A stretch of 64,000 nucleotides of DNA, from positions 83,774,624 through 83,838,623 of the forward strand of contig NC_057718.1 in the NCBI RefSeq assembly GCF_004010195.1, given 5' to 3'. Both the position numbers and the translations under genes were made by a program. Below the pieces are notes generated by a model. That model made no database searches. It was not told the origin of the DNA and saw nothing but the letters and a program-made list of their open reading frames with translations. Of this stretch, positions 5,325 to 63,069 are shown in pieces (the first letter of the stretch is position 1; every line of letters starts with the position of its first letter). Origin of the DNA: Chiloscyllium plagiosum (Eukaryota).

Positions 5325-7655
5325 TGTTGCAACCATAAAAAGTTGAAGGCACTCAGATCCTGGGTGAAGTTTCCTAATTTATCCCAGACTGGATACCCCA
5401 AATTGTTAATCTTCTGGGTGAGAAGGGGTGAACTAGCTCCCTTGGGTTATTTATTGACTTGCCCCTCTGTTGGCTCTCATGAGGTTAGTTTAATAAGGAT
5501 CATTTCTTCGTGTTTACCTATCTCAGACTGAAATTACCTTGTCTTATAAATGGAACCAAACTTAACCAGGCTTTTTTGATTTAACAAGACAAAACATGAG
5601 AAGTAGTAACAGAATACACAGATGTTAAATAGGGAATAAGTCCAAAAAGATAGAGTTAAAGACGCAGAACAATGTTTGTTTGATGTTTGAAGAACGAGCA
5701 TGAAGACGTTTCAACTATTATTGGATGGCAACAGTAGCTGGACATTGGCAGTTGAGTGGTCAGTCTTGAGATTCTTGGTTTTGCATGTTGGTTAAAATTA
5801 TTATCGAACTGGCTACCTGCACTCAGTGGAAGATAGTGATTGTTTTTTCCTTTTACTCGCTATGAAGTGTTGTCTAAATGCCTGTTCTCAAAGTTGTGAC
5901 CCTTGAAGTTAACAACACACACAGGTTAATGTTGCAGTCAATTTTAAACCTCTTTTATATTCCTGGATGGTAAAACAGATGTGTTGGCAAGAGGCAGTTT
6001 TGTATTCAGGGGGAGGGTTGTCAGCCTCCTTGTTATCACTAAAATAAAAACCAAAGGACTATGGATGCTGGAAATGTGAAACATAAAAGAGAAAGTCCTG
6101 GAGCAGTCCAGGTCTGGCAGCATCTCTGCAGAGAGTAACAGACTACTTGCGTTTCAAGTCCAGTGACCCTTTGTCAGAAAATAGTTTGGAAATCACTCTT
6201 CACTTTGTCCTCTGCCTCGTAATCCCCACAACATGACTATCATAAATTGACCCCTTTCCCAGCTATTTTTAGTGCTGACCAAGGGCCACTGGATTCGCGT
6301 ATTCTTTCTGCAGATCCTTCCAGACATGTTCAGTTTCTCCAGCACTCTTTTTCTCTTCATTATCTCCTCTCTTCTAAGTATTTTCTGTGTTTGAACTTGG
6401 CCTGACACTTAACAAATGTGATATTGCAATGGCTTCACACAGGCCGGACAGTGACTGAATTTATAGCTCTGGAGTGTTTTTTCCTCCTGTTGCAATTCAT
6501 AATTCACGTTCTTTAAAGAACAAACACATGTTGCATTAAAAAAACTTAACAAGTGTTTGTAAGTACTTGGGGGTTCTGATCTGTAATTGTAAGGTTGCTC
6601 CTATGTAATGAACAGTCCCCATTGTCATGCAAAGGCTGGGGGAGAAATAAACATGTTTGAGTACATATTTCTTTCATCTGTCCTTCACTCCGTCCCTCTT
6701 ATTGGGTCTAAGTTCTGGACAGTTTATTGGCAACATTAGTAATTTTAAGTGATATAGTTGAAAAAACAAGTTACATTGGATGTCTTGGATCTTTGTACAA
6801 ACTTTTCCACAAAAGTTTAATGGATTATTACAGACTGCAGTGTCTGTACCCATTTTGGACAAAAACATCTCTTTGTAAGCCAATAATAAACTAAGGATTT
6901 CCTTTATCTGCTGTGGAGTGTAGCTTCAATGTTTGTTTTAATATTTTGGAAAAGTATAGGATACTTGATTGTTATCTCTATTTGGGATTAGTCTTCCTTC
7001 TGAATGGGCTACTTCAAATACCTGGTTATAGTTGGGAGCTGCAAGTACAAGCTTGCTTATGAAAAATGGCCTTCAAGTTTTCAAAAGTTCCCTGGCATTC
7101 CTCAGTCCATACTAGCTGTGTTTTTTTTTTCTGTAGCAGGTCCATCAGTGGCTTTGGTCCAAATTTCAGCACAAACTTTCAAAAGAACTTTACATTCCCA
7201 TCTCTTATTGAGTGCTGCCAGCCGTTTTAAAAGGAATCGAGACAAAGGCATTTTGATCAAACCACAAAAGCAAGAATCTTGACATGAACTGCCAATGTAA
7301 ATGCGACTAGTGCCTTCTAACAATGGCTACAATACCTTCGTACAGGATCTTCATGAACAATTCAGAGACTGAGCGATAGTCTTTTTAAAAAGGTTTTTTG
7401 GAATTGCTTCTTAGTATTTTGTGTGTTTATTTTTGCTTGTGCTTAGCAATTAATAAACCTGCTTTATTGTTCATTTCAAGAAGGTTGACTCCTTTTTGTT
7501 TGAAACCCAAGGAAATGGGTATCCATAAGGAAAGATTTCTTTTTCTTGAATCTTTTTGCTATAATCTGAGGTTGGGGTGAATGACCAAGGGAACCAGTTC
7601 ATCCCTCCTCACCCAAAAAGTTTGATTTGGAGTGTCTTTCTGAAACTGTAGCAAA
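5325..7655. mobile_element. Possibly two related LTR-like elements in opposite orientation
   Basis: 5411-5445 (cttctgggtgagaaggggtgaactagctcccttgg) is an imperfect reverse complement of ~7586-7620. AATAAA lies near 7452. The block interrupts the CR1. No TSD resolved. Confidence 0.3.
6040..6365. mobile_element. Decayed inverted pair of PLE termini
   Basis: gatgctggaaat...ggtctggcagcatct...cgtttcaagtccagtgaccctttgtcag resembles the PLE end at 62935-63065. An inverted partner lies at ~6270-6355. Confidence 0.65.
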
Positions 7656-7681
7656 TGAAAAAACCTCATCTGGGCTTTTTT

Positions 7682-7992
7682 TTAGATTAGATTAGATTAC
7701 TTACAGTGTGGAAACAGGCCCTTCAGCCCAACAAGTCCACACCGCCCCGCCGAAGCGCAACCCACCCATACATTTACCCCTTACCTAACACTACGGGCAA
7801 TTTAGCATGGCCAATTCACCTAACCTGCACATCTTTGGATTGTGGGAGGAAACCGGAGCACCTGGAGGAAACCCACGCAGACACGGGGAGAACGTGCAAA
7901 CTCCACACAGTCAGTCACCTGAGGTGGGAACTGAACCCGGGTCTCTGGCGTTGTGAGGCAGCAGTGCTAACCACTGTGCCACCGTGCTGCCC
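7682..7992 (-). mobile_element. tRNA-derived V-SINE (HE1-like)
   Basis: Minus strand begins gggcagcacggtggcacagtggttagcactgctgcctcac (A box), has B box gggttcagttcc, a central V-domain (tgtggagtttgcacgttctccccgtgtctgcgtgggtttcc) and a (TCTAA)n tail. Confidence 0.92.
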
Positions 7993-9371
7993 ACAAGCTT
8001 GGGGTCTGGGCATAATGCAGTTATATAAATTTAGTTTGACGAAGAGATTGTAAGTATAGTTGCTAATTATATCTTCAAAAGGAAGTTGTGAGGACCCAAA
8101 AAGGCTCCATAGGGTTAGATTAAGTAAGTGGGCAAAAACCTAAAAGATGAGATTATATTGTGGGGAAATATGAAATTGTCATGTGAAATATTTGAAGGAG
8201 GAATTTAAAAACCATTACAAATAATGAGGTTGGAGAGCTCTGAGATGCCGAAGAATCTCATGTGCTATTTCAAAATCACAAAATTCAACAACATGCTGGT
8301 ACAGCATGTAACCAGGAAAGCAAATAGAATATTTGTTTTATTGTGAGGGGAATTTAGTTCCCAAGTAGGAATGTTGAGCTGCAGTTATAAAGGGCATTGA
8401 GCCCACATCTAGAGTGCTGTACACAGTATTTGTTTCCTCTTTTAAAAAAAAAAGTACAAATTCATTGGAAGCAGCTCTGAGAAGATTTACCAGACAAACA
8501 CTTGGAATTGGTGGTTTACGAATAAAGGTAGGACAAGCGAGACTTGCATCCAAATAAGTTTAGAATAGCAAGAGATGACTTGATTGAAATTTACAATATC
8601 ATGGGGAGTCTTGATACAATAGATGTATAATATTCTGTAGTGTGTGTGTATTTAACAGCATCCTCTCTTTTCAATCACCAACCCAAATGCTATCATCTCC
8701 AAGTCCTCTAGACTCTATCCTTGATTGCTGTTTGATTGAAACTACCCGAACCACAGGGTCTGCTTATACATAGATATTAACGTTTTTACACTCTGACCAC
8801 CATTCTTACCTTTTCAGTTGTTTCTGTGTTGTCAAACTGCGTGTTGGTCATGGCTTTGTGCAGCTTATTGAAGCCATTTTCTTCAGCCATTTTCTTCAGT
8901 AGTGTTGAGACTTCTCACTAATTTTACCCTCCTCTGGTCTGCATCTCTCTGTAGATTCTCCCTCAGCCATTGTGTACTTTATGGCCATATGGCTCAATTG
9001 CCCCTGCTTGTTATAAATCTGTCATCCCACTATCAGGCAGTGTCTTTGGAATTTCATCTAAAACCTCTTCAGTACAAAATCCCTTCCCTTTTTGTTTTGG
9101 ACTCTACCCCTTCCTTTTCCTTTGCTTTCAAAACACTTGTGCTGTACAATCCTTTTATCCCTTTCTTGAACCCCACCCTCTCTTCTGTCCTCTTCCCAAA
9201 ATGACATGCAATTTGATTCTGTATTTGGTGATTTTAGGATAGATGGCAACTCTGTGAAGGAGGTAGGTTTTAAGAAACAAATTAACTGCAGACAGTGTTT
9301 TGGAGGGAATTCAGTGTGTAGCACCCCAGCTGACAATGTTGACTGATCTCGGGGAGTTGATAATGAAATGT

Positions 9372-13289: not shown

Positions 13290-13511
13290 GCCAAAAGTGA
13301 GGACTACAAATGCCGGAAACCAGAGTTGTGTGTTGTGCTGGAAAAGCGCAGCAGGTCAAGCAGCATCCGAGGAAGAGGACAATTGATGTTTGGAGCAAGA
13401 GCCCTTCATCAGGAAAGAGCATGCCGATGAAGGGGTCTTGTCCGAATCGTTGATTCTCTTGCTCCTCCGATGCTGTCTGACCTGCTGTGCTTTACCAGCA
13501 CCACACTCTAG
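13290..13511. mobile_element. Palindromic mini-PLE insertion
   Basis: Inverted arms with decayed hammerhead cores at the centre. 14-bp TSD ACTTCCTCATCAGA (13276-13289 / 13512-13525). Confidence 0.85.
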
Positions 13512-15177
13512 ACTTCCTCATCAGAACCACCTGCATGATTCTATTGCCTTGACATGTTCTGGAAAGCAAGGGACAAGATGTTATCCTTGTGTCTTTAACA
13601 CATACCCAACTCGTGCAAATCATTATTTGACTTACTCCGTCTCTTTCTTAAATGTTGCAATGTATTGTTGCCTTCCAAGTTCCTACTTTGCTTTCCCTTT
13701 TTTTGGGCACAGAATTTGAACAATCAGTTTTTTTTTTTCCCTCTTGTTCCTGCAGCAAACAACACGAATCAAAGTTTGGAGTGATATTATGTGATTGAAA
13801 TTGTGGTACTTTGTCTGTTTTTTTGTTCAGTTTTGTGGGACAGCCCTTATGATTTTGTACTTTTTCCTGTCCAATTGTGTTTGGAGTAAATGCACAAGTT
13901 TCTTCCTCTGTATCCACTCACTTGGAATTCTTAATTATCTTTCTTCAATCTCCTCTTCCTCAGTCATGTTCTCCCCATCAGCCAGAGGCAATGTTTTCCA
14001 TGTGACATGTGTTAAGCTAACTGGCCTGTAGTTTCTTCCTTTGCTTTATTCAAAAAAGGAGGTACAATTATGTTGTCTAATTTCTAATCTAAAGAAGCCT
14101 TGCCTGAATCAAATGAGCTTTGGAAAATTAAAACTAAGGCATCAATTATCTCACTAGCCATTTCGTTTAAAACCCTAGAATAAAATGCAACAGGACCTGT
14201 GGACTTGTCAACTTGCAGTTCCACCAATTTACTCAGTACTATGCCCTGGTAACTAATTTTCTTTAAATTTCTCTTTCTTTCCAATTCCTGATGTACAGCT
14301 GTTCTTGGGATATTGTTTGCACCCTCTGTAGTGAAGATCAATGCAAAATATCTGTTGAATTCATCTGCTGCTCTTTATCTTCAACACATGTTTTTCAAAA
14401 CTGTGTTAACTTAGTTTCTTAAGATACTTATAAACAGATGTAAAATGCTTTCTTTTTTATTTTTGGCTAACTTGGTCTTGTATCCTGGTTTTTCATTGCT
14501 TTATTAATCTTGTAGTCTGGACAGAATATTTAAAAAAGCAAACACAATCTTTTGACCTGCCATTTATCTTTGCACAACGATCTGTTTCTTTGAGTTGAAC
14601 ACAACTTTGACTTTTTTAGTGAAACACAGATGGTGGCCCTGTCCCTCAGAACTTTTCTTATTTGTTGAAATGTATCCTGCGCTTTCTACAACTTTCCCTT
14701 GTAAATTTTTGCCACTGCATCTTTATTGACCTTAATTGCTGACTCCCGTTCAGTAACTGTGCTTTTATGCCCTCCATTGTCCTTGTTTAAATTTAAAATT
14801 TAAAATTTGACCCTGCTCTCACTTAAACTGTTACAATGAGGTCAGTAATTTAATTCTGTCTTGGTCAAAACCAGGTTATATAGTGTACTTTGCTGTTGAG
14901 TGGTATAAGATGCTAGTCTAAAAGATTGTCCCAAAAATATTCAATGAGTTTTTTAACTCGATGGTTTTCACACCTGATTTTTAAAAAAAAAATATTTTTT
15001 TTTCCTGTCTGTATGTAGGTTAAAATCCCCCATGGTAATAGCTGTACACTTCAGACAGGCTTCCACTATTTGTTCTTTGATACCCTGTCCTGCTGTATGG
15101 TTACTGTCTAGGGTCCTGTACACAGTTCCTTTAAGTAAACTCTTACCTTTTATTATTGTTTACCTCGATCTTGACTT

Positions 15178-15502: not shown

Positions 15503-17768
15503 GACATACATGTCAAAAATGTTGTAAGGACAGTATCAAACTCATTTTTTTTCAATCGTGGACTATTTCCTCTGGTGGATGTTGATCATCTTCGAATAGT
15601 CACCAACCGGCAGCTCAATCCCATCCTCATCTTCCTGTAGGAGTACAGCTCCAACTCCTATGTCACTAGCATCGATGGCGACTTTAAAAGGTTTTGAACA
15701 GTTTGGTGTTAACTAAAACTGGTTTGGTGGTTAATATTGATTTCAAATGGTCGAATGCCTCCTGGCATGGTTCTGTTCACCGAAACTTTGTCTTCTTCTT
15801 CGGTAAATCGGGTCATGGTCCCACTACATGGCTGGCGTTTAGAACAAACTTCCGAGAGAATCCGCAGAGTCCAAAGAATCGAAGCACCTCTTTCTTCGAG
15901 GTTGGTTGTGTGTGAATTCCTCGCGAGCCTTTGTCTTTGTGTTCTGTGCAGTCAGCGTTCCATGACCAATGTTCTGACCCAAGAACGTCACCTCTCCTTT
16001 CGTGAATTCCATTTTGTTTAAGTTTATCACCAGTTTTGCTTCTCATAGTTGTTGAAAGAGCTCTGCCAACTGTACCATGTGATCTTTCCCGGACTTACTA
16101 AAGATCACTACAACGTCCAAATAGACTACACAGTTTGTTAACCCAGCCATAACTCTGGTCATGGGTCTTTGGAATGTGGCAGGTGTAATCTTCATTCCAA
16201 ACAGCATCACTTTAAACTGATATAGCCCATTTGGGATGACGAACACAGAAATTACTTTCACCGTCTCTGATAAAGCTACCTGCCAGTAAGCACACATTAA
16301 GTCCAACTTTGTCACGTAACTGACTTGTCCAACGTTCTCGATACAGACCTCTAATCTAGGAATTGGATGTGAGTCCGATTTTGTAACAGCGTTGACCTAC
16401 TGATAATCCACGCAGAATCGTTGAGTCCCGTCAGGTTTGGCAACTGAGACAATCAGCTAACTCCGTTTACTCTCTCTTGGTTCGATAATGTCCTTGTCGA
16501 GCATGGCCTCCACTTCCATCTGACCTGGCTGGCTTTGAAAGGTTTAAGCCGATAGGGGTGTTGTTTGATTGGAGCAGTATTCCCCACTGAGCTGAAAATT
16601 TGTTGCTGGAAAAGCGCAGCAGGTCAGGCAGCATCCAGGGAACAGGACAATCGCGTTTCGGGCATAAGCCCTTCTTCAGCCCTTCCTGAAGAAGGACTTA
16701 TGCCCGAAACATCGATTCTCCTGTTCACTGGATGCTGCCTGACCTGGTGTGCTTTTCCAGCAACACATTTTCAGCTCTGATCTCCAGCATCTGCAGACCT
16801 CACTTTCTCCGCAGTATTCCCCACGTCTACTTCATGTATAATATCATTAGTCCTCCCCATCTGATTCTTACATATGTCCTCATACTGGAAAAGCAAACCT
16901 CTCAACTCCATTTCATGTCCTGAGACACATAGCTTACTAACCTATCCCACTCCGCAAAGACTTCTGCATTTTTAAAATCTGCTTTGAGGCACATCAAACT
17001 CCACGACACCTGGATTTGATTCCTCACCCTGTGGAACAGTAACTATTACCTGTTTCTCCAGTTCCCTGTCTCTATAAGGTTTCAACATACTCACATGAGC
17101 TACCCAATACAGGTTTTTTCCATCAGACATCTTTACCAGATGGTTTACCTGACTTAACTTTTTCTCAGTTTGATAGGGACCATGGAACCTAGCTTTGAAG
17201 GGAGCCCCTTCCACTGGTAACAGTACTAACACATCATTCCCACGGGAAAACATCCAAACTTAGGATTTTGTTCTGCTACCTGCTTCATTCTATACTGTGC
17301 CCTCTTCAGGTCCTGTTTAGCTAACTCACCCACTTGCTTTAGTCTCTCCCTCACCTCCGATACATAATCTAAGTGTGACATTTCCAACGTTGGTCCTGTT
17401 AATTTTTCTTTCATTAATGTCAAAGGGCCTCGCACTTCATGCCTGAATATTAACTCAAAGGGAGTGACCCGAGGAGATTTGTTTGTGGTATCTCTAATGG
17501 CAAACAATACAAATGGGATACATTTATCCCAATCATTCGGGTAATCCTGACAGGACACTCCCAACATGGTCTTCAGGGCCTGATGTCTCCTTTCTAAAGC
17601 TCCCTGGGATCCAGGATAATACACACTGGATTTAAAGTGCTGTATACCTAAGCTATCTATAACCTCCTTAAACAGCCTAGCAGTAAAGTTAGACCCTTGG
17701 TCTGACTCGATCTCTCTGGGTAGCCCATACCGTGTGAAGAAAACTACTAACTCCTCTCCCACCAAACA
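15503..17768 (-). mobile_element. Ty3/Gypsy pol fragment with INT-RT-RNaseH order (Gmr1-like), no LTRs
   Basis: In minus reading order: integrase core (SDQGSNF, GALERRHQALKTML, TPFELIFRHEVRGPL), GPY module, RT (PIKQHPYR, RFCVDY, KLDL..YWQV, FGMKITPATFQR, VYLDV), RNase H (FKVAIDASDIGVGAVLLQ). Multiple frameshifts. Confidence 0.9.
16588..16810. mobile_element. Palindromic mini-PLE inserted in the Gypsy pol
   Basis: ~90 bp inverted arms. 14-bp TSD GCAGTATTCCCCAC (16574-16587 / 16811-16824). Confidence 0.92.
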
Positions 17769-30619: not shown

Positions 30620-33600
30620 TGAAATCTTTGGAAAAAACTGAATAAATCTGGTTGCATTTTTGGAGAGAAATCAGAGCTAATGTTTTGGGTCCTTCTTCAG
30701 AACTGATAACCAGGAAAAGAGCTGAAGGTGGTGGTGGAGTAAAGAAGTAAATGATAAGTGGAGATGTAGCCTCGAGGGAGTGTAATTACAGTTAGACAGA
30801 TATTTTTAAACCAGTGAAACAGAAAAACTGGTAATGGGGACTATAAGTAGGTGAGAATGGGTTAGCTATGCTGAGAGCAACCCCATGTGATAACAGGACC
30901 AGGGGTTTGGGGTTGGTAAAGGGCATGGACCAAGGTTTTTAGGTCCTCAAATAGTTGAACTTGGTATTAAGTCCTGACTGCTGTGGGATCCCTGAGTAGC
31001 AAATGGATTCTTTTCTTTTGGCTTGTACTTAGCCAGCAAGCCTGTGACAAGATCTTGACCAGGGATAAGGTGGTGTGTGGAAGTGGCAGTTAACTGGAAG
31101 TTACTCTTTTATTTTGTGGACAAGATCTACATATTCTGCAAAGCAGTCAACCAGTATGAACAGCAAATACAATAGATTAGAATGAGTCAAGTGCAGGTAA
31201 ATTGCTGCTTCACCAGGAAGATGTGTCTGGAGTGGAGAGCGTGGTGCAGCACAGCACAACAGTTCAGGTAGCATCCGAGGAGCAGGAAAGTCGACGTTTC
31301 GGGCAAAAGCCCTTTGAGCCTTGACCAATGAGGAGGGAGGAAATAAATGTGCAGGTGTTGCACCTTCTGGGATTGCAAGAGGTGGTGTTTGACGATGCAA
31401 TGGACCAGACCAGATCCTCTTAAAAAATGTGAAGAAGATAGCCTAGACATTAACTTTTTCTCCCTTACTTTAAAGGGAAATGTTAGGTGCTTTGTTGCAG
31501 ATGATTTTGGATTGGTCTGACTACTGGACATTAAGTGAAACACCGTTTATTCCAGCATTACAGTTAAAATAAAACAAGAATATGAAATAACTTAACCCTA
31601 CTGGAACTTAATGGAATAATAGACTAAGTACCTATTACTAATTAACTGTTCCAATATGGTAACATTACATAAACACCTCTTTTGGCAAAAAAAGGCAAAT
31701 TCAGAAAATTGTCTTGCATGCAGTTCAGCAACCCAGGAAGAGAACCTCAGCTTTTGGCTGTAATTGAGAGAGGGCAAAAAATACCTTTCACTTCAAGATC
31801 CCAATAGCAACTGTGGCTGAAAATTACAAATCCCTGATTCTGTGGGTGGGAGCTTGACCGTGCCCATTCAGGCTGCTTCTACTGTTGCATCTTTTTAGAA
31901 GTCAAAGCACCGAAGGCTTCACAAGACCACGATCTTCCCATAGACTGCTTGGCACCTGTCCTTTGTGCACTCTCTCTCGTGTTCACCTGCCCTCGCTCCC
32001 TCTCTCTCTTCTGCTTGCCCGCTGAAAGAAATCAGGTCATAACGCACCTTTTACAGCTACAGCTTTGTCACTAAGGGGAGGAGGCGTGGACTAAGATGTG
32101 GCAGAAGGACAGCCTCTGCAGAATGTTGATAAGGGAAGAGAGGGGAATGTGTCTAGTAATGGCATCCTGCCGCAGGTAGTGGAAATAGTGGCTTATGAGT
32201 TTTTTGGATGTGACTGCTTTTGGGTTGGAAAGTCAAGACCAGGGGATCTTATCAGTGTTGTTGGGAGCTAAGAGAAAGGGCATGGGCAGAATTGTGGGAA
32301 ATAGGTTGGAATCAGCTGAGGGCCCTTTGAAGCAGGTTGAGGAAGAAGATAGGCATTTTCAACACCCACCATTCCCCCCTCTCAGGGAGGTTCATATCAT
32401 CATCGCAACAGGTATGATGGAGATAGAGAAGCTGGGAGAATGGAATTAAGTCTTCACAGGATGTAGACTCCAGGTAACCAGAGTTGTTTGGTTTCTAGTG
32501 GATATCAGTGGTCAGCCTCTTCCCCAGAAATGGAAACCCAGATGTCGAGGAAGGGAAAAGACCGAGATGAACCAGATGTTGGTGTGAGGAGGGTGGAAAT
32601 TGGAAGTGAGATTGATAAACTTTTTTCAATTCCAGAAAAGCAAGTGAACCAGCACCCATTATGTCATTGATGTACAGGAGAAAGTTGTGGGGCTAAGAGA
32701 AAGGGCATGGGCAGAATTGTGGGAAATAGGTTGGAGCAGTGTTGTAACCAGCAATATTCCATACATCCCCCAAAGAGAAGGCATAACTAGAGCCCATGTG
32801 GGTACCTGTGGCCGCACCCTTGATCTGAAGAAAGTGACAGGCATTAAAGGAGAAGTTGTTTGGAGTGAGCGAGTGCTTGACCAGGTGGAGGAGGGTGATA
32901 GTGATTGAGGGTGGTTTGTGCCTTTTTGATCCAGGAATAAATAGACAACCTTTGAAATCATCCTGATTTGGGATGGATGTGTGAAGGGATCACATGTCCA
33001 TGCTGAAAAGGCAGTGACTGCTACCTGCGAACAAGAAATTCTGAAACTGACGCCAACTGTTGGGGAATTACTGATGAAATGTGTTGGGACTGAAAAAGGG
33101 GAGAAAAATTGAGTACCTAGGTCTTCAATTTCCATTCACCAGCATCGTACAGTGAAAGGATCAGAAGCCACCAGCTCTGCCAGCAGGCATAGATTCTCCT
33201 TTCCTCCCTTGTTTGCATTTTGCAGGACCCTTGCCCTCTTGCATACCCTAGTTAATTCCTCCTCCATTCATAAGACTGATTACAGAAAGGTGAAACACCT
33301 GCCCTTTTTACTTCCTCCTTCCTCACTCTTCCAAGGCTCCTGCCACACCTAACAGGAGAAGCAGCAATTTATCTGCACTTGGCCCAATTCACTTTGCTCA
33401 CAATATGGTCTGTATTTTTGGGACACAAAACGTAGACATCTCAATCACTTTGCAGAACACCTGCATTCTGTCCACAAAAGTGACCTTGATCTTCCAGTTG
33501 TTTGCCACCTGAATGCACCACAGTATTCCCGGCCAACATCTGTCTTGGACCAACTGTAGTGCTCCAGCAAGGCTCAGTGCAAGCTGGAAGAATAGCATCT

Positions 33601-34045
33601 TGTTTTCTGGTTGGGGACCCTGTACCTTTTCAGGACTCAATATTGAGTTCAATAATTTCAGGCCCACCCACATCCCTGGCCTATCCACACTGGCTGCTTT
33701 CAGCATGACCAACCCACTTTGACATGCATATGGTCCTCATTATCATCATTTATCCTTGCCTGGCTTAGCGTCATTCTTCAGTTTTCATCTGCTTAACTGT
33801 CTCGCTGTTGTGCTGTGTCTGTCTGTCTCTGTTGTCCACTGGGCTCTACCTCCACCTTTCACTTAGTCTTTTACCTCTACTCTCTGTCATCAGCGTATAT
33901 ACCACATTTTCCTGGCTGAAGTGTCATTGGACCCAAACCATTAGCACTGCTTTCTTTTCATAAATGCTGTCAGACCTGCTCAGTTCCTCCAGCAATTTGT
34001 GTTTTTGTTTCAGATTTGTGTTAGCTGCACTTCTTTTCTTTTATT
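30620..34045. mobile_element. PLE: minus body (~30620-33140) followed by an inverted plus-strand 3' part (~33140-34045)
   Basis: RT tract on minus near 32750-32900 (fragment QVPTWALVMP of a frameshifted G..MG....P motif). Plus-strand GIY-YIG-region tract 33350-33660 resembles the reverse complement of 63260-63540. Confidence 0.75.
31390..32070 (-). mobile_element. Probable solo LTR inside the PLE
   Basis: Starts TGAC and ends GTCA, interrupts collinear PLE sequence, AATAAA on minus near 31547. No TSD found. Confidence 0.45.
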
Positions 34046-34361
34046 ATCACAAGCCTCCAGGCTTGGACTGATGATTGGCAAGTAACATTGATAGCACACA
34101 AGTGCCAGGGAATTACTATATCTAAAAGAGATAATTTAATAATTGCACCTTGATGTTCAAAGGCATTATTGTCACTGAATTACCCACTATCAAAATGCTG
34201 TAGATTACCATTGATTACAAATTGAATGGGGTCAATATTTAAATAAGGTGGCTGCAAGATTAATATATCTGCAGTTAGAAATTCACTTCTGTATTCCCAA
34301 TGTCTATCCACTATCTACATGGTACAAATAAACAGTGTGATGGAATCCTTTCCATTTATCT

Positions 34362-37800: not shown

Positions 37801-38371
37801 TCCTCAGGAGCTTACCATGAAGTGTATAAGTCCTGTTCTGATTTGCCTTTCCCAAAATGCAGCATCTTGCGTTTATCTAAATTAAACCCCATCTGCCACC
37901 CCTCAGTCCATTGGCCCATCTGATCAAGATCCTGTTGTACTCTGAGGGTACTTTTTTTTTGCTGTCCACTACATCTCCAATTTTGGTGTCATCTGCAAAC
38001 TTACTAATTATACCTTCTATGTTCACATCCAAATCGTTTCTATAAATGATGAAAAGTAGTGGACCGAGCATTGATCCTTGTGACACTGCATTAGTCACAG
38101 GCCTCCAGTCTGAAAAACAACCCTCCACCACCATCTTCTACCTTCAAGCTTGTTCTGTATCCAAATGGCTAGTTCTCCCTGTATTCCATGAGATCTTGCC
38201 TTGCTAACTCGTCTCCCATGGGAAATCTTGTCGAACACCTTACTGAAGTCCATATAGATCACGTCCACTGCTCTGCCCTCATCAATCCTCTTTGTTACTT
38301 CTTCAAAAAACTCAATCAAGTTTGTTAGACATGATTTCCCATGCACAAAGCCATGTGGACTATCCCTAATC

Positions 38372-39465
38372 CCTCCCTCCCCTTCCTAGACCTCTCCATT
38401 TCTATCTCGGGCGACTGACTCAACATGGACATTCACTATAAACCGACCGACTCCCACAGCCACCTAGATTACACCTTCTCCCACCCTGCCCCATGTAAAA
38501 ATGCCATCCCATATTCCCAATTCCTTCGCCTCCGCCGCACATATTCCCAATTCCTTCGCCTCTGCCGCATCTGCTCCCAGCAGGACCAATTCAAATACCG
38601 AATAATCCAGATGGCCTCCTTCTTCAAAGACCGCAATTTCCCCTCAGACATGGTTGATGATGCTCTCCACCACATCTCCTCCACTTCCCGCTCCTCTGCC
38701 CTTGAACCCCACCCCTCCAATTGCCACCAGGACAGAACCCCACTGGTCCTCACCTACCACACCACCAACCTCCAGATACATCGTATCATCCTTCATAATT
38801 TCCGCCACCTCCAAACAGACCCCACCACCAAGGATATATTTCCCTCNNNNNNNNNNNNNNNNNNNNNNNNNNNNNNNNNNNNNNNNNNNNNNNNNNNNNN
38901 NNNNNNNNNNNNNNNNNNNNNNNNNNNNNNNNNNNNNNNNNNNNNNNNNNNNNNNNNNNNNNNNNNNNNNNNNNNNNNNNNNNNNNNNNNNNNNNNNNNN
39001 NNNNNNNNNNNNNNNNNNNNNNNNNNNNNNNNNNNNNNNNNNNNNNNNNNNNNNNNNNNNNNNNNNNNNNNNNNNNNNNNNNNNNNNNNNNNNNNNNNNN
39101 NNNNNNNNNNNNNNNNNNNNNNNNNNNNNNNNNNNNNNNNNNNNNNNNNNNNNNNNNNNNNNNNNNNNNNNNNNNNNNNNNNNNNNNNNNNNNNNNNNNN
39201 NNNNNNNNNNNNNNNNNNNNNNNNNNNNNNNNNNNNNNNNNNNNNNNNNNNNNNNNNNNNNNNNNNNNNNNNNNNNNNNNTGTACCCGAAAGAATAGAAA
39301 TGGCATTCTAGATCCTCAGAAACTATTCTTTCTTCTTTCCTGAAGAAGAGCTTATGCCTGAAACGTCGATTCTCCTGCTCCTTGGATGCTGCCTGACCTG
39401 CTGCGCTTTTCCAGCAACACATTTTTCAGGTCTGATCTCCAGCATCTGCAGTCCTCCCTTTTCTC
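38372..39465 (+). mobile_element. 5'-truncated Penelope-like element inserted in the CR1 (spans the gap)
   Basis: DIHYKPTDSHSHLDYTFSHPAPCKNAIPYSQFLRLRR is the PLE RT thumb. The element ends in a terminus with a hammerhead motif. 12-bp TSD CTATCCCTAATC (38360-38371 / 39466-39477). Confidence 0.9.
38847..39280. other. Assembly gap (N run)
   Basis: Continuous n characters. Confidence 1.
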
Positions 39466-41779
39466 CTATCCCTAATCATTACTTGACTTTCCAAATACAT
39501 GTACATCCTGTCCCTCAGGATTCCCTCCCAACAATTTGTCCACCTTCAATGTCCAGCTCACTTGTCAGTAGTTCCCTGGCCGGCCCTTGCCTTTCTTAAA
39601 TAGTAGTACCACATTAGCCAGCCTTCGGTCTTCTGGCAACTCACCTCTGCCTCTCGATGATACAAATATCTCAGCAAAGGGCCCAGCAAGCACTTCTCTA
39701 ACTTCCTACAGAGTTCTCAGGACAACCTGATCAGCACCTGGGGATTTATCCACCTTTTTATGCTTTTCAAGGCATCCAGCACTTCCTCCTCTATAATATG
39801 GGCATGTTTCAAGCTGTCACCATCTATTTCCCTACATTCCATATCTTACATGTCCTTCTCCACAGTAAACACTGATGCAAAATATTTGTTTACTATCTTC
39901 CCCCATCTCGTGCTGCTCCACACACAGGCTGCTTTTTTGATCTTTTGAGGGGCAATATTCTCTCCCTAGTTACCGTTTTGTCCTTAAATGTGTTTAGAAA
40001 ATGCCTTTGGATTTTCCTTAACCCTATTTACCAAATATTTCTCATGTCCCCTTTTTGCCCTCCTCATTTCTCTCTTAAGTATACTCCTACTTCCTTTATA
40101 CTCTTCTAAGGATTCACTCGCTCTATCCTGCCTATACCTGACATATGCTTCCTTCTTTTTCTTAACCAAATCTCAATTTCTTTTGTCATCCAGCATTCCC
40201 AACACCTACCAGCCTTTTCTTTTCACCCTATTAGGAATATACTGTCTCTGAACTCTTGTTAATTCATTTGTGAAGGCTTCCCATTTTCCAGCTGCCCCTT
40301 CTACCTGCAAACATCTGCCTCCAATCAGCTTTTGATTGTTTTTGCCTAATACCGTCAAAATTGGCCTTTCTCCAATTTAGAACTTCAACTTTTAGATCTG
40401 GTTTATCCTTTTCCATTATTTAAAACAAATCGAATTATGGTTGCTGGCCCCAAAGTACTCCCCCACTGACACCTCAGTCACCTGCCCTGCCTTAGTTCCC
40501 AAGAGTAGGTCAGGTTTTGCACCTTGTCTAGTAGATACATCCACATGCTGACTCAGAACATTTTCTTGCACATACTTAACAAATTCCTCTCCATTTACAC
40601 TCTTAACATTATGGCAGTCCCAGTTTATGTTTGGAAAGTTAAAATTCTCTACAATAACCACCCTGGTGTTCTTACAGATGACTGAAATCTCCTTATAAAT
40701 TTGTTTCTCAATTTCCCTCTGACTATTCGGAGGTCTAAATACAATCCCAACAAGGTCATCATGCCTTTCTGATTTCTCATTTCAAACCAAATAACTTCCC
40801 TGGATGTATTTCCAGGAATAACCTCCCTAAGTACTGCTGTAACGCTATCCCTTAGCAAAAATGCCACTCCCCCTCCTCTCTTGCCTACCTTTCTGTCCTT
40901 CCTGTAGCATTTGGATCATGAAGCTGGCAATCGTGTCTATCCCTGAGCCATGTTTCTGTAATTGCTGTGATAGCCCAATCCCATGTCCCTAACCATGCCC
41001 TGAGTTCATCTGCCTTCCCTGTTAGGTTTCTTGCATTGGCAAATTAAACTGCATTAATTTCAATCTTGACTCACTACTTTTCTCAAATGTACCAGTCTCC
41101 GATTGTTCGAGGCACTGACCACCCATGATCAGCTATGATGGGCTGGGCACATCATCTGCATGACTAAAATGAAACTTAGCAAGTAGTTGCTCTACTCCCC
41201 ACCCTCAAATCAGCAGGCAATCTCCAGGTGGTCAGAGAAAGCCCTTCAGTGATATCGCCCAAGGCCTCACTGGCCAAGTGCGGCATTGCCGCAGACAACT
41301 GGAAATCACTGGCACAGCAATCAGAAATAGCACTTTGTTCTGTCATCTAAACCTCACAAATACCAAAGCAGGTAGCAGCGTTACGAATTTTCGCCAGTCA
41401 AGGTGCAGTCCAGCACATAAAGACAAAATTATTAAGACTTCATGCTTTTCATTTTTAACAACTGTATTGGATGTATTCTAATATAAGCCAAGCATTTGCA
41501 ATTTTTCTGGTAGTGGTTTGGTGGTTACATTATTTTCCCAGAGTAGGGAGACGTATTACATGATTTTAAAAATTGAGACTCTGACTTGTCTCAAAAACCA
41601 TTCTCTTGTGCTGGAAAATTTCATTGAGCTTGCCACAGATGTCAAAAGATTTTGTGTACAGCAATGAAGGTCAAAATAATTTGGCCTGAGCAGTTGTGAA
41701 ATCTAAAGGCCTGATATTGATTTTCTCGAAATAGATAGCATTTCTCTCAAGACTCTGGGAAAGTGGAAAAGCACAAAGT

Positions 41780-43850: not shown

Positions 43851-43854
43851 TTGT

Positions 43855-46185: not shown

Positions 46186-47322
46186 GTACAGGAAGGGTAT
46201 ACTTAGTTGAGTGTGTGTAATGATGAGTAAACTGGGCCTATACTGTAAAATTGAGGATAAGAGGTGATTTCATGAAATCTACAAGAATCTAAAAACAAGT
46301 TTGAGAGAGCAGATATTTGAAAAGTCGTTTATGCTGGCTTAGTTAAAAAGAAAACAAATTTCACTAATTAAAATATCTAATGGCTAAATGGAATAGCTCA
46401 AATACTGTCACTCACTCACAGATCATGACATTGATAACCTGGTCAAAAGGTCAAATGAACATTCATGTAAGGCACAACTTGTAAAATCTCATGGCACTGT
46501 ATTTTTGCGAGCCAATGATTTACCTGCTAATTTACAGCCACTTGGAGTAATTATAATGACAGCAAACAGAGATGACATATGAAAATACAGGTCAAAATTA
46601 ATAGAAGCAGCATTTCAACATATTTTCTTGGATCAAATTTTACAAAACTAAAATCATCTTGTGTATATCATGTTTGTTTCCTTCATAAATAATATTTGGA
46701 ATTGGATTTCTATTTTTACCTGTTGATTACAGATGTACTGAAATGTTATAGCCTGGGACTACAACTGAATTCCCAGTTAATCCATGAAATAGACCCTAAT
46801 TTTACTACTAATTTAGTTTGAGGAATAAGACAGTAGCTAATTTTCCACTCTCCAACCAAGGACATCCGCCAAATGTTGCTGCCTAACCAGTGTTCTAGCT
46901 AGGATCACCTAACTGCATACAAACTTGGCCTAAGACTGAGATTTAGAAATCATTTTTAATGCAGTCAGAAGTGTTTCTTAATGCTTTTTAATGTAATATT
47001 ACACTTCCATTCATCATTTTTTCTGTAGCAGAGCACCCAGCTTTTCTGGGAATTTCTAATTAATCCATGTTAAACTTCCTGAGAAGCTGAGTAGTTGGGT
47101 AACATTTTAATCACATTTTCAGTTCCACCAACCAATGTATGGATAGGAGATAATGAGAACTGCAGATGCTGGGCAGTAAAAATTGATAAAGACCTTGAGC
47201 TGGAAAAAGCAAAGCAGGTCAAGCTGTATCAAGAAAAAGGTAATTCGACGTTTCGGGTCAGAACCTTTCATCAGGATTGTGGGAGGGGATAGGAGCTGCA
47301 AAATAAGTAGAGGGAGGGGTGG

Positions 47323-47790: not shown

Positions 47791-47914
47791 GTGGGGCTGG
47801 GCAAATGGTAGGTGGGATGGTGAAAGACCGATGCAGATAAAAGGTGGCTGTGATTCTTCAGTGAGAAGAGTGGAGCGGATCGGTGGGAAGGAAGACTGAC
47901 TGACTGACTGACTG

Positions 47915-48043
47915 GGAGAAAGTGAGGACTGCAGATGCTGGAGATCAGAGCTGAAAAATGTGTTGCTGGAAAAGCGCAGCAGGTCAGGCAGCATCCAAGG
48001 AGCAGGAGAATCGACGTTTCGGGCATAAGCCCTTTTCCGGAAT
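47915..48043 (-). mobile_element. Single PLE terminus inserted in an older PLE
   Basis: Near-identical to 50767-50882. Flanked by CTGACTGACTG (47904-47914 / 48044-48054) within an (ACTG)n run. Confidence 0.85.
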
Positions 48044-50158
48044 CTGACTGACTGTCAGGTGGAGATAGAAGGCTGGGCCTGGAATGAGGTTGACGGGATG
48101 GTGGAGAAGAGTTGGAAGCTGGTGAATTCTATATTAAAGCTGAATGGTTGTATGCTCTGAGACAGAAGATGAGGTGTTCTTCCTCTAGTTTGCGTGTGGC
48201 CTTCTGTTGGAGGATGTACATGTTGGGGGAGTGAGAGGGGCAGTTGAAATGGATGGCAGCTGGAAGGTGGAGTTGATGGGAGTGTGCAGATCATAAATGT
48301 TCTCTGAACCGGTTCTTGAGTTTGCGCTCACTTACTCTCTCAATATAGAAGTGACCACATCGGGAGCGACAGATGTAATAAATAGATTTGAGCTGCTCCA
48401 TTTAGCCGTTGGGTATTTTAGTTATTGAAGTTTGTTTTCTTTTTAACCCATCAACGTAAACAACCTTTCAGCCTCTGCTCTTTTAAACCTCTTTCGATTC
48501 TTGTAGATTTCGTGAAATCATATCTTATCCTCAAATTCAGAATATGAACCCAGTTTACTCGTCATTACACAAGCTCGCATCTATAATGTTTGAGCAGTGT
48601 CCAAGGTTAGCTCATCCTGATTTCCTGCATCCGTTGCTACCGATATGGTCTCCTCTACATTGGAGAGACCAAGCGCAGACTCTGGAACCAATTCAGGGAA
48701 CACTTACAGTCCATATGCTGTAAATCAACCCCACCTTCCAGTTATCATCCATTTCAACTCTGGCAATGACATGTCTATCCTGGGTTGCCTCCACTATCAA
48801 TACAAGGCAACTTGTAAACTGGAGAACGAACACCTCATCTTCGGTCTCAGATGGCCTCATCCAAAAATTCATCAGGGCCTCATCCAGCAGATTGTTGAGG
48901 CATCTAAGGAAGAAGCTGTGAGCTCTCGGGCCAACCTGGAGGGGAATGGAGGGAGAGGGGTATTGGATCTCCATGGTGAATAGGGGGAGGGAACTGGAAA
49001 TTATCAATAGGATGGAGGACACAGGAATCATGGATGTAGGTGGGCCGGGTCTGGACAAGTGGAGAGGAGTCATGTTGGGAGGGAATGAGCTCAGTGGGGC
49101 TGGAAGATGCTGATATGATGGGTCTATTGAGACAGTCTGATTTATGAATTTTGGAAAAGAGGTAGAAACAGGCTGTCTAGGGTGTTGGGAGACGACTGGA
49201 TTGGAGGTGGAGGTATTTCTGGAAGTACTGCGGTCGATGACTATCCTGGCAACAGGAGCTTGATGTTCACATCTGGGATCATGGTCCAGGTGGCAATGGA
49301 AAGAAGTGTCTGAAAATTGGTGATGAGTCTTTGAAAGGGACTGATCACTGCGCCTGACTACAGTAACACTACATTTGTCAGCCAGCTTGAAAACAAAGTT
49401 AGGGTTGGACCTATGTCAGTGAAGTACAGCTATTTCAGAAGCGGCCAGGTGAGTATCGGAGAGAGGGGCAAAGAAGTTTGAGATGGCTGATGTCATGTCA
49501 GCAGTTTTCAATGAAGAGATTGAGGGCAGGCTACAGGCCAGATGGAGAGGTCCAAGTGGAGGGTGAACCATGAATGTGGGTGAAGGGATCAGTGGAACGT
49601 GGAGAATTTTTTCTCGACCAATACCCTACACCCACCATCACTATTCCTGCCAACTAGAGCACAAATGTTGTACCTCCACACTTCAGTTCTGAAGAAGTCA
49701 TTTAAATGTTAGCTTGCTATCTCTCCATGATGCTGCCTGACCCTTTGTGATCTCCAGCATTTGTTTTCAGAACAGATTCCAGTGTCTTCAGTAATTTGTT
49801 CCTATCACTTAAGGATGCAGGATAGGCCATTAAGAACGAAGTTGAGAAATTTCTTCACCTTAAGAAGTTAGGTCCAATGTAGGTTTTCAGGCTAAAGGGT
49901 ACACAAAGCAGAAACTGTGTACAATCACTATTGGATAATCACCCATGAATATGCGGAATGGCAGAGCAAGCTTGGAGGGTTGAATAGCCTGCTCCTATTA
50001 TCTATGCTTCTAACTGAATTAGATGTTTCGTGTTCACTGCTAATGTGTCAATAATATTTTGCATAAATATAAAAGGTACCAGTTTTCTCCAAAGGAAAAA
50101 TACCTCAAATTAAGCAACAACAGAGCATTGGCATTCAGCATTTTTTTTTCTCCTGTAG

Positions 50159-50763: not shown

Positions 50764-50980
50764 CCAGAGAAAGTGAGGGCTGCAGATGCTGGAGATCAGA
50801 GCTGAAAATGTGTTGCTGGAAAAGCGCAGCAGGTCAGGCAGCATCCAAGGAACAGGAGAATCGACGTTTCGGGCATAAGCCCGAAGAAGCCTGAAGAAGG
50901 GCTTATGCCCGAAACGTCGATTCTCCTGTTCCTTGGATGCTGCCTGACCTGCTGCGCTTTTCCAACAACACATTTTCAGC
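50764..50980. mobile_element. Palindromic mini-PLE
   Basis: Near-perfect ~85 bp inverted arms. 12-bp TSD AGGTGTAATCGA (50752-50763 / 50981-50992). Confidence 0.93.
50891..50918 (+). ncRNA. Minimal type-I hammerhead ribozyme core
   Basis: CUGAAGA-A-GGGC-UUAU-GCCC-GAAAC-GUC, with predicted cleavage after C50918. Helix I is weak in this copy. Confidence 0.7.
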
Positions 50981-51046
50981 AGGTGTAATCGAGAGCCAAG
51001 AATGTTATCTCTGATCAAGATCCCGTTGTAATCGATGGGTGAATGG

Positions 51047-51573
51047 TTCTGGATTAGTGGTGCTAGAAGAGCACAGCAGTTCAGGAAGCATCCAAGGAGC
51101 TTCAAAATCGACGTTTCGGGCAAAAGCCCTTCAGGAATAAAGGCAGTGAGCCTGAAGCGTGGAGAGATAAGCTAGAGGAGGGTGGGGTTGGGGAGAAACT
51201 AGCATAGAGTACAGTGGGTGAGTGGGGGAGGGGATGAAGGTGATAGGTCAGGTCAGGGAGGAGAGGGTGGAGTGGATAGGTGGAAAATAGTCTCCTTTTC
51301 CACCTATCCACTCCACCCTCTCCTCCCTGACCTATCACCTTCATCCCCTCCCCCACTCACCCATTGGACTCTATGCTACTTTCTTCCCACCCCCACCCTC
51401 CTCTAGTTTATCTCTCCACGCTTCAGGCTCACTGCCTTTATTCCTGATGAAGGGCTTTTGCCCGAAACGTCGATTTCGAAGCTCCTTGGATGCTGCCTGA
51501 ACTGCTGTGCTCTTCCAGCACCACTAATCCAGAATCTGGTTTCCAGCATCTACAGTCATTGTTTTTACCTCAA
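51047..51573. mobile_element. Palindromic PLE insertion with ~240 bp arms (second subfamily)
   Basis: 51047-~51288 is the reverse complement of ~51297-51535. 10-bp TSD GGGTGAATGG (51037-51046 / 51574-51583). Confidence 0.92.
51444..51471 (+). ncRNA. Minimal type-I hammerhead ribozyme core
   Basis: CUGAUGA-A-GGGC-UUUU-GCCC-GAAAC-GUC. Both catalytic boxes are canonical and stem II is 4 bp. Confidence 0.75.
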
Positions 51574-52231
51574 GGGTGAATGGGCTGAGGCATGGTAGAT
51601 GGAGTTTAATTTAGATTAATGCGAGGTGCTGCATTTTGGAATAACAAATCAGAGCAGGACTTAATGGTAAGGTCCAATGGAGTATTGCTGAACAAAGAGA
51701 CCTTGGAGTGCAGGTTCATATTTCCTTGAAAGTGGAGTCGCAGGTAGATCGGATAGTAAAAAAGGCATTTGGTATGCTTTCCTTTATTGATCAGCGCGTT
51801 GAATACAGGAGTTGGGAGCTGTACAGGACATTGGTTTGGTCACCTTTGGAATATTGCGTGCAATTCTGGTTTCCTCCCTATTTGAAAAGATGTTGTGATA
51901 CTTAAAAGGGTTCTGTAAAGATTTAGAATATGGCCAGGGTTGGAGGTTTTGAGTTATAGGGAGGGGCTGAGTAGGTTGGGGGTGTTTTCCTCGGAGTGGA
52001 GGCTGAAGGGTGACCTTAAAGAGGTTTACAAAATTTATGAGGGGCATGGATAGAATAAATAGACAAAGACTTTTCCCTGGGATCTGGGAGTCCAGAACTA
52101 GAGGGCGTAGGTTTAAGGTGAGACAGGAAAGATATAAAAAGGACCTAAAGGGTGACTTTTTCACACTGTGGGTGGTGCATGAATGGAATGAGCTGCCAGA
52201 GGATGTCGTGGAGGCTGGTACACTTACAACA

Positions 52232-59200: not shown

Positions 59201-59274
59201 GACACCACCAATTTTTCAAGGGTAACTAGGACAGGCAATAAATGCTACACCCACATATCACAAATGAATAAAAC

Positions 59275-60630: not shown

Positions 60631-60690
60631 TTGAGTATCTTGCATGCATTTACAACTGTCTTTGGTAGCTTCTGTATTATCAATACAAAC
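60631..60690 (-). CDS. Probable internal 60-nt coding exon (VCIDNTEATKDSCKCMQDTQ, or FVLIIQKLPKTVVNACKIL in phase 2)
   Basis: On minus: acceptor gtactgctttag and consensus donor GTAAGT. Length is a multiple of 3, frame open, context non-repetitive. Confidence 0.55.
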
Positions 60691-61799: not shown

Positions 61800-62605
61800 G
61801 GATGTCGTGGGTTACAGAGGGACATGGATAAGCTGCAGAGCTGAGCTGAGAGGTGACAAATGGAGATTAATGTGGAAGCGTGTGAGGTGATTCACTTTGG
61901 AAGGCCGAACAGGAATACAGAGTACTGGGCTAATGGTCTGATTCTTGGTTGTGTGGATGAGCAGAAAGATATCTGTGTCCATGTACGTAAATCCCTGAAA
62001 ATTGCCACCCAGGTTGAGAAGGTTGTTAAGAAGGCATGGGCGTTGTTAGCTTTTACTTGTAGAGGGATTGACTTTCAGAGCCACGAGGTCATTCTGCAGC
62101 TGTACAAAACTCTGGTGCGACCGCACTTGGAGTATTGCATACAATTCTGGACACTGTGTTATAGAAAGGATGTGGAAGGTTCGAAAAGGGTGCAGTGGAG
62201 ATTTACCAGGATGTTATGGAGGGCAGCTCTTATGAGGAAAGACTGAGGGATTTAAGGCTGTTTTTGTTAGAGAGAAGGTTGAGGGGTGACTTAATTGAGA
62301 CATGTACAATAATCAGAGGGTTGGATATGGTGTACAGCGAGAGCCTTTTTCCTCGAATGGTGATGGCTAGCGCAAGGGGACAAAGCTTTAAATTGAGGGA
62401 TGATAGATATAGGACAAATGTCAGAGGTAGGTTCTTTATTCAGAGTATTAAGGGTGTGGAACGGCCTGCCTGCAAGAGGAGTAGACTCTCCAACTTTAAG
62501 GGCATTTAAATGGTCATTGGATAAACATAGGATGAAAATGGAATAGGCTTCAGATTGGTTTCACAGGTCGACGCAACATCGAGGGTCCAAGGGCCTGTAC
62601 TGCAC
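61800..62605 (+). mobile_element. CR1 3' portion
   Basis: CEVIHFGR...LYKTLVRPHLEYCIQFW...RGDLIET, with tail ttctatgttctat. Confidence 0.93.
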
Positions 62606-63030
62606 GGTAATGTTCTATGTTCTATCCCTAACTATCCATGACAAGCCATCTTCTACTCCTCCTGAGAAGCTGGTACATTCAGAGTATTCAGAGTGGGGAG
62701 TTGCAGGATATCCAGTTGCAGTAACAAATGGTGATATTGTTCCAAGTGAGAAAGACCCACAAGACCAGAAGAAATAGTAACAGCCGTAGCTATCCAACTC
62801 CTTGAGCCTCCTCTGCCTTTCATAGGATCATTGCTGATCTGACATTTATCACATCAATTTTTCTTGCCTTACCCTGGTGACTCTCTCTTCCCCTACTGAT
62901 TAAGAACTTAACTCAACCTTAAATACACACTGGATAAAAGCAAATTACTGCGAATACTGGAATCTGAAACCAAAAGAGAAAATGCTGGAAAATCTCAGCA
63001 GGTCTGGCAGCATCTGTAAGGAGAGAAAAG

Positions 63031-63069
63031 AGCTGACGTTTCAAGTCAAACTGACCCTTTGTCAAAGCT
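63031..63069 (-). ncRNA. Hammerhead ribozyme variant (U3-A8)
   Basis: Minus strand reads AGCU-UUGACAA-A-GGGUC-AGUUU-GACUU-GAAAC-GUC-AGCU: 4-bp helix I and 5-bp stem II with two G-U pairs. Confidence 0.65.

Follow-up and report, generated by a model that had tools for sequence, protein, structure and literature searches.

Hammerhead ribozymes in the ends of Penelope-like elements (PLEs, 2014), the U3-A8 variant of the hammerhead core, the inverted arms of Penelope insertions and their one-sided tail are all already in print (PMC4209133, PMC3846280, PMC8557442, PMC11167929). Cervera and de la Pena (2014, PMC4209133) described minimal motifs located in the terminal repeats, with many families per genome, opposite-strand pairs and the U3-A8 variant in Schistosoma; in vitro, single minimal motifs were inactive and dimers weak. 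The insertions of endonuclease-bearing (EN+) Penelope elements show head-to-head arms, a tail of 30-40 bp at one end and a target duplication, and their pseudo-long terminal repeats (pLTRs) carry a TATA and an initiator-like motif (Arkhipova 2013, PMC3846280; Craig 2021, PMC8557442). In PAc, the Poseidon element of Anolis carolinensis (Frangieh et al. 2024, PMC11167929), two start sites of reverse transcription bound the tail downstream of the hammerhead, both target strands are nicked and extended, the RNA template is uncut and no reads end at the cut site; the anole motif depended on its protein, and insertion in vitro could do without the motif. Non-LTR retrozymes (bioRxiv 10.64898/2026.07.22.740005) are non-coding, hammerhead-bearing pLTR derivatives, which are known from one cartilaginous fish as well. 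Here we analysed a 64,000-nucleotide stretch of the shark Chiloscyllium plagiosum (contig NC_057718.1, positions 83,774,624 to 83,838,623 of the forward strand; called the window, with its own numbering used throughout) and compared its Penelope ends with copies sampled across the genome. Most copies in the window are decayed stubs that start just before the ribozyme, often as lopsided mirror pairs, and they are short dead insertions, probably reverse-transcribed from uncut RNA that began a few bases before the ribozyme.

A first-pass annotation of the window, made from its letters, had named nine hammerhead motifs, and all nine were recovered at the coordinates and on the strands given for them (Table 1). 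Almost certainly they are minimal type-I hammerheads, carried by Neptune-like Penelope retrotransposons in the terminal repeat at their 3' ends. A search with a profile built from sampled copies detected 20 Penelope-type ends in the window, against the nine named earlier. The claim that nearly every such terminus carries a hammerhead holds for remnants only, as an intact core is left in two of the 20 ends; the CUGA box is missing through 5' truncation from at least four of them (22304, 28949, 31314 and 50882) and others have deletions in the box. We applied a strict descriptor, which demands a core with 3 and 8 paired, a helix II opened by G-C and no shorter than 4 bp, GAAA, pairing of 15.2 with 16.2, and U-H. 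Of the nine named motifs, those at 50891 and 51444 pass it and the other seven fail: the motifs at 6150 and 16654 have lost U16.1, the one at 13385 has a changed G12, those at 16686, 39340 and 47247 have helix II mismatches, and at 63035 G10.1 faces a T. The same descriptor was applied to a genome sample of 178 stretches of 10 kb, taken at round coordinates on the 44 largest contigs (1,720,015 non-N bases). It found 89 intact cores (52 per Mb) and none in three shuffles. In a Rfam scan of the window no hammerhead family reached E<=5, which is not surprising for a motif that lacks helix III. The profile search detected 563 Penelope-type ends in the sample (327 per Mb). If the sample is typical, extrapolation to 3.56 Gb would give about 1.1 million ends and about 180,000 intact cores, compared with about 4,000 in coelacanth and 9,000 in Xenopus with the own descriptor of PMC4209133. 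The shark copies form a natural archive of great size for two questions of this literature, the role of a weak ribozyme and the origin of inverted, one-tailed insertions.

The sample contains at least four families, A (with subfamilies A1, A2, B1 and B2), C, D and F, in agreement with the three or four subfamilies or more that had been proposed. The core C3 U4 G5 A6 N7 G8 A9 ... G12 A13 A14 A15.1 ... U16.1 H17, with 3 and 8 paired, is kept in all seven family majority sequences, D having it in the U3-A8 form. Also kept in all seven are the extra A and a palindromic remnant of helix III, which is ACGU in A, C and D, as the annotation had described, and AGCU in F. The extra nucleotide that it had noted after A9, between 9 and 10.1, is present in every one of the 89 intact sampled copies (A in 86, T in 3). 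G10.1-C11.1 is the majority pair in six of the seven groups and has become G-T after CpG decay in C (in the 89 copies G-C was imposed by the descriptor). Helix II reads GGGC/GCCC in A, GGGUC/GACCC in C, GGGUC/GACUC in D and GGAGC/GCUCC in F, and the cut triplet is GUU in C and CUA in F (GAAAG-CUA). Family F does not occur in the window; it accounts for 122 of 576 profile matches in the sample (for example L059, L134 and L149) and shows the same pile of 5' ends and the same long and short pairs as the others. In the core, the extra nucleotide after A9, G10.1-C11.1, the palindromic 15.2-16.2 and the short helix I, these motifs resemble the minimal hammerheads of PMC4209133, from which they differ in a helix II of only 4-5 bp and in a U-U mismatch at the third helix I pair of A1 and B; the searched part of the supplement of that report holds no shark or Callorhinchus entries.

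Covariation in stem II had been read from the window copies. Helix II does change on both sides between families, and part of the variation among window copies is decay: by the family majority letters, the supposed GGU/ACC stem at 47247 derives from GGGU/ACCC by a single G to A change and the GGGUC/GACUU stem at 63035 is GGGUC/GACUC after CpG decay. Two features were overlooked in that first description, the U3-A8 core of the 63035 family (D) and the pairing of helix I. The latter, which the descriptor does not demand, was found among the 89 intact copies in 78 at pair 1, 81 at pair 2, 38 at pair 3 and 63 at pair 4, and between families it changes on both sides with pairing kept (AUUC/GAAU, AGUU/AACU, AGCU/AGCU and CAC/GUG). 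When the nine window copies were aligned, 83% of the cells paired, and two-sided changes affected four of eight pairs, three of which belong to helix I; slid structures gave 15-48%, a control to be read with the caveat that the structure was derived from the same sequences and that related sequences can beat a shuffle control. The expected excess conservation of the catalytic boxes over their flanks was observed, with 62 mismatches to the family majority in 1841 non-CpG cells of the core and 227 in 3949 downstream, a figure inflated by the lumping of subfamilies. The lower divergence of the core fits selection on master elements. An ATG located 18-25 nt past the cut site opens a frame, MLPDLL..., common to A, C and D (in the window at 50936-50980, plus strand, and 63013-62950, minus strand); it is probably the start of the element's protein, and would therefore explain part of the downstream conservation.

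The coding capacity points to the same class of elements. The minus-strand frame at 63191-63964 encodes a reverse transcriptase (RT) thumb, a CNRRCNIC linker and a GIY-YIG-type domain, and has two longer relatives, a ray and a shark protein, at 55-57%. That the terminal repeat is preceded by an RT with a GIY-YIG domain at its C-terminal side is supported by the matches of 63245-63964 (57%) and 38338-38847 (62%) to P0001, one of these relatives. P0001 matches Pfam GIY-YIG at E 8e-4, under the curated cut-off, and the endonuclease fragment of the window itself gave no Pfam match. GIY-YIG or RT homology was located at most 900 nt upstream and on the same strand in all seven groups, being weakest for F, and of the 15 loci found with the 63281-63600 protein, all of them scanned, 14 have a U3-A8 motif behind the coding match. 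A CX2-5CxxC linker between RT and endonuclease is the mark of Neptune and Nematis (PMC8557442); it is present here, as CNRRCNIC, in family D only. The elements appear to be endonuclease-bearing and Neptune-like, and family F, with matches of 34% only, may belong to another clade. The predicted protein of P0002 (Stegostoma tigrinum) runs past the endonuclease and ends in ...SLMKGLRPKRQL..., which resembles a translated hammerhead end, so that a related motif in that shark is probable.

The 3' ends of the shark copies are bimodal. Counted from the cut site, they cluster near +62 and +97 in A and near +57 and +92 in F, a spacing of about 35 nt and a likeness to the two start sites of PAc. In A1, A2, B1, B2 and D, two nested stems are predicted downstream of the hammerhead (UGCUG/CAGCA inside GAUGCUG/CAGCAUC; 51480-51552 on the plus strand of the window) with the short 3' end in the loop that separates them; at that position the sequence of family F is unrelated and is predicted to form a 9-bp stem. 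The 5' ends were counted after leaving out copies below 85% identity and 50 copies that end at a gap, an edge or the start of the reference. They pile up at -10 to 0 before C3 in 89 of 227 copies of A, 24 of 60 of C/D and 33 of 85 of F (146 of 372 in total), with 8 of 372 at -21 to -11. Another 54 copies start in the opening 11 nt of the core, and 10 start no more than 1 nt from the cut site. Genome-wide pattern counts at +27, +28 (the cut), +29 and +30 were 412, 468, 103 and 574, the patterns admitting an estimated 0.56, 0.36, 0.25 and 0.36 of the flank letters and being distorted by junction microhomologies; after this rough correction there is no isolated peak of 5' ends at the cut site, either there or in the sample (n=372). 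Since few copies start at the cut site and the pile stands before the core, the RNA that was reverse-transcribed would usually have held a whole, uncut ribozyme at its front. A pile at the 5' edge of the ribozyme separates the shark copies from PAc.

Occasional cleavage is nevertheless hinted at. One full copy of the U6 small nuclear RNA (L226:1511-1621, minus strand; 90 bits, model positions 1-105) continues, past the U's at its end, directly as a B-type Penelope end, with the joint at the first base after the predicted cut site and 130 nt of element after the U6. The chimera, found by a single pattern that tests only the cut-site position and hence has no position control, suggests that some element RNA is cut in the germ line. 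Efficient self-cleavage as the normal template-making step, with cut monomers or circles as its products (the scheme of the 2014 model and of retrozymes), would account for the conservation of core and pairing across families and for this exact joint, which suggests cut 5'-OH ends in the germ line. It is nonetheless improbable in view of the scarcity of starts at the cut site, the missing genome-wide peak and the rarity of tandem arrays. Among 300 copies spanning the motif we counted three same-strand neighbour pairs closer than 600 bp, so that a dimer partner is nearly always missing, and one head-to-tail dimer was identified (sampled locus L012). Tandem dimers as a rule were rejected on these counts, and so was retrozyme identity, which calls for hammerheads in consecutive tandem units: non-LTR retrozymes form tandem arrays with a hammerhead per unit, whereas the shark copies lie scattered, either singly or as inverted pairs.

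The pile of 5' ends is quite likely the transcription start of an internal promoter of the element, because C, D and F carry TATA-like boxes 35-40 nt upstream and A and C an initiator-like sequence, of the consensus YYANWYY, with its A at -4. Copies that start at -4 numbered 3172 in genome-wide pattern counts for one loop variant alone, point mutants included. In one single-cell poly(A) run, 1425 RNA reads fell on the A1 end, in both orientations, and they lose similarity mostly before -4 (107 reads) and -3 (43 reads); another run (X20) yielded no matching reads.

The inverted arrangement of the copies offers a second view of the insertion process. The marks of EN+ Penelope insertions are present (an inverted, 5'-truncated arm, a tail at one end and a target duplication), and 246 of 513 good copies stand in 123 head-to-head pairs, 73 of which have a target duplication, mostly of 10-17 nt, compared with 1 in 300 mismatched flanks. 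Unlike the insertions of PMC3846280 and PMC8557442, the shark arms are mostly of about 100-130 nt, non-coding and present in hundreds of thousands of copies. Outside the window there are 121 pairs. In 102 of these both ends fall at one of the two 3' sites, and 95 combine a long with a short arm, four being short+short and three long+long (p 4e-21); the remainder comprise 13 pairs of a long arm and an arm ending elsewhere, three of a short arm and such an arm, and three touching an edge. All four clear pairs of the window (Table 1) are long+short with target duplications. Solo copies are about equally long and short (69/65, 27/35 and 20/19). An identity as miniature inverted-repeat transposable elements was discarded, the arms differing by about 35 nt around a variable centre and being continuous with RT and endonuclease remnants, which is not the structure of symmetric terminal inverted repeats that have fixed ends and lack a 5' truncation series.

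The simplest reading of the mirror pairs, and on balance a probable one, is that both nicked target strands prime on one RNA, one at each start site. The capacity of the anole protein to nick and extend both strands and to use unprocessed RNA (PMC11167929) speaks for it, and so does the near-equal length that the two arms often have when one of them reaches far upstream. The mirror arms could also arise by self-priming, one cDNA or antisense template folding back near the hammerhead stems and copying itself, with the second arm ended at the proximal site by the endonuclease; self-priming has been proposed for the junction in rotifer Penelopes (PMC3846280) and endonuclease resolution for the tail (PMC8557442). 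In its favour, pairs that reach far upstream often have equal arms (in four of eight the partner stops within 5 nt, one of the four being limited by the length of the reference), as does the window pair at 51047-51568; inverted stubs as small as 8-12 nt are seen at 5' junctions, many junctions show a 2-3 nt overlap, and an early-stopping arm is joined to a long arm in 13 pairs and to a short arm in three. Yet fold-back predicts that the tailed arm always extends further 5', and this arm is the shorter in 52 of the 89 untied pairs, the short arm being so in 37 (9 against 10 among young pairs, with 16 within 5 nt). Solo copies, moreover, end equally at the proximal and distal sites, some with a clean duplication, so that the proximal site primes by itself, and short+short pairs are only four of 102. 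Taken together, these observations make self-priming rather unlikely as the general source of the arms.

Under priming by both strands, then, an insertion might proceed as follows. Transcription would start at the 5' pile of the internal promoter, making the ribozyme the first fold of the RNA. The endonuclease would nick the two target strands about 12-16 nt apart, and the two target 3' ends would prime on the same RNA, one of them at its distal and the other at its proximal start site. Both cDNAs would run to the 5' end of the RNA and be joined head to head, and loss of either arm would leave a solo copy. The ribozyme would be kept by selection on active master elements, cutting weakly or with the help of the protein, with cut RNA as a minor template, and the inserted copies would then decay. 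In these terms the copy record would say that templates were mostly uncut, that they began at the 5' edge of the ribozyme and that the two start sites were used one per arm. As a more speculative extension, which we put forward tentatively, two-ended priming could be obligate: a protein dimer would hold one capped RNA with the hammerhead as its first fold, each nicked strand would be assigned a fixed start site of its own, the stubs, roughly one million in number, would be run-off copies of the leader, and the ribozyme would be a switch, triggered by protein, by which a minority of the RNA loses its cap, leaving 5'-OH ends that can be ligated to U6. Our literature search found nothing on shark Penelope hammerheads, two-ended or twin priming of Penelopes, cap traces or U6 joints, in a coverage that excludes Repbase and most subscription journals, where the families may be described.

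Several points weigh against this reconstruction. Equal-length long arms are explained as easily by fold-back, and later deletion of palindrome centres can blur the arm-length test. The shark evidence is genomic, and its assignment of the sites to one arm each differs from PAc, a Poseidon element where the shark has a Neptune-like linker, for which no difference in start site between strands was seen in vitro (PMC11167929). The clade is read from the linker motif and not from a tree, the sample is confined to round coordinates on the largest contigs, and the 5' counts carry the exclusions given above. No start site, cap or cleavage was seen: in the RNA run there is no position where many molecules begin or end, although a library of this type cannot show 5' ends. 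The excess of G at -5 in A1 (1956 G, 522 T and 694 A), as expected of a copied cap, is an uncertain trace: about 60 of the first 100 such cases have, by eye, element-derived letters upstream, many such cases being junctions with the other arm, and in A2 there is no excess of G (9 G, 16 A, 4 T and 71 C in the first 100). A cap-derived G is accordingly a weak cap trace. Finally, the TATA of the A-type promoters is no more than weak, and in D a splice-acceptor-like (Y)nAG stands where the 5' ends pile.

This last feature introduces a different account of the pile, as a 3' splice site, known from Penelope of Drosophila virilis (PMC4209133), or as a stall of RT at the hammerhead fold. The pyrimidine run of D with its AG ending within helix I, two AG candidates nearby in C and the unequal G signal of A1 and A2 would suit it. 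A spliced template, however, should add a shared upstream exon, and clustering of the upstream flanks revealed none, only genomic upstream sequence or inverted arms; A2 has no AG at the pile; and a structure should halt RT at its own 3' side (+28 to +33) and not after it has been read through. We therefore regard splicing or stalling as unlikely, and a transcription start as the better account.

The first-pass annotation had gone on to place potential cleavage sites inside host introns, and working sites of this kind are unsupported in the window: 18 of its 20 ends have lost the intact core, the two intact cores lie in long palindromes and a dimer partner is mostly absent. The palindrome at 50767-50980 is predicted to fold with its motif trapped (-171 kcal/mol). 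No host exon was detected in 155 open frames from the non-repeat parts of the window, which gave no Pfam matches (142 frames searched at E<=0.01 and 13 at E<=1); these were frames of at least 45 aa plus five splice-bounded candidates, the 85 lower-ranked of 235 listed being left out, and one candidate exon had no match in PDB. Unconstrained co-folding of two monomers did not produce a clean hammerhead dimer, a result of little weight since the energy models omit the core. The abundance of intact cores genome-wide, if the extrapolation holds, and the motif-bearing reads in both orientations would favour dispersed copies as cleavage sites in host pre-mRNA, but single minimal motifs did not cut in vitro (PMC4209133) and the anole motif depended on its protein (PMC11167929), and with the state of the window copies this makes such a role highly improbable. 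The likelier burden on host transcripts would be hundreds of thousands of long hairpins, not working ribozymes.

Table 1. Penelope-type ends and associated features of the window (positions in window numbering)
Feature	Position	Strand	Remarks
C/D-type Penelope end, long tail	6042..6179	-	Decayed hammerhead 6150-6177: C3 opposite A8, U16.1 lost
Strongly decayed C-type end facing away from 6042-6179; possibly its short partner arm	6271..6348	+	23 bits
B-type head-to-head pair, target duplication of about 15-18 nt	13294..13514	.	Tailed arm - (decayed hammerhead 13385-13412), tail-less arm +
A1 head-to-head pair, 14-nt target duplication	16589..16810	.	Tail-less arm - (16654-16679), tailed arm + (16686-16713)
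C-type end, helix II deletion	30631..30708	-	Profile search
B-type end, 5'-truncated, without CUGA box	31226..31314	-	Profile search
Old GIY-YIG remnant (33191-33622), then decayed C-type end (33918-34046)	33191..34046	+	
5'-truncated A1 element	38338..39466	+	RT end 38338-38847 (62% to P0001), assembly gap, hammerhead 39340-39367 (helix II mismatched), long tail
Older, divergent A-type end	47146..47276	-	Hammerhead 47247-47274; A opposite C at first helix II pair
Young A1 end, long tail, CUGA box mutated, inserted in (CAGT)n run	47910..48048	-	Profile search
A1 head-to-head pair	50767..50980	.	Tailed arm 50767-50882 -; tail-less arm 50890-50980 +, intact core 50891-50918, helix I 5' strand of the core replaced by the junction; 12-nt target duplication, 50752-50763 and 50981-50992
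Long B1 head-to-head pair	51047..51568	.	Tail-less arm -; tailed arm + with intact hammerhead 51444-51471; arms equally long (175/180 inner nt align); 10-nt target duplication, 51037-51046 and 51574-51583
Family D end, long tail, two 3' end sites	62934..63069	-	Hammerhead 63035-63065, U3-A8 core, helix I AGCU/AGCU
TATA-like box, 35 nt before hammerhead core	63093..63100	-	Putative promoter role
Family D coding remnant: RT thumb, CxxxCxxC linker, GIY-YIG endonuclease	63245..63964	-	55-57% to two named proteins (ray, shark)

The two pairs at 50767-51568 are independent palindromic insertions of different subfamilies, located 66 nt apart inside a CR1-like remnant of a long interspersed nuclear element. 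Their two long hairpins account for many spurious microRNA matches; the Rfam microRNA matches at 51100-51450, 50840-50942 and 16614-16751 were rejected as palindromes, all being under the gathering score. The pair at 16589-16810 is inserted in broken, long terminal repeat retrotransposon-like RT and integrase frames (16043-17777, minus strand; Pfam rve, E 9e-6, under the cut-off). The A1 copy at 47910-48048 and its (CAGT)n run sit within an older Penelope remnant with endonuclease matches at 48165-48398 (minus strand) and 48617-48848 (plus strand), and an old coding remnant at 32115-33622 has its RT part (32204-33001) on the minus strand and its endonuclease part (33191-33622) on the plus strand, with an inverted junction within the coding region. 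The window further contains four copies, 75-90% alike, of an unnamed dispersed repeat (27054-27944, 34432-34801, 47389-47694 and 59600-59827) and a tandem array with a unit of 33-34 nt at 24983-25232.

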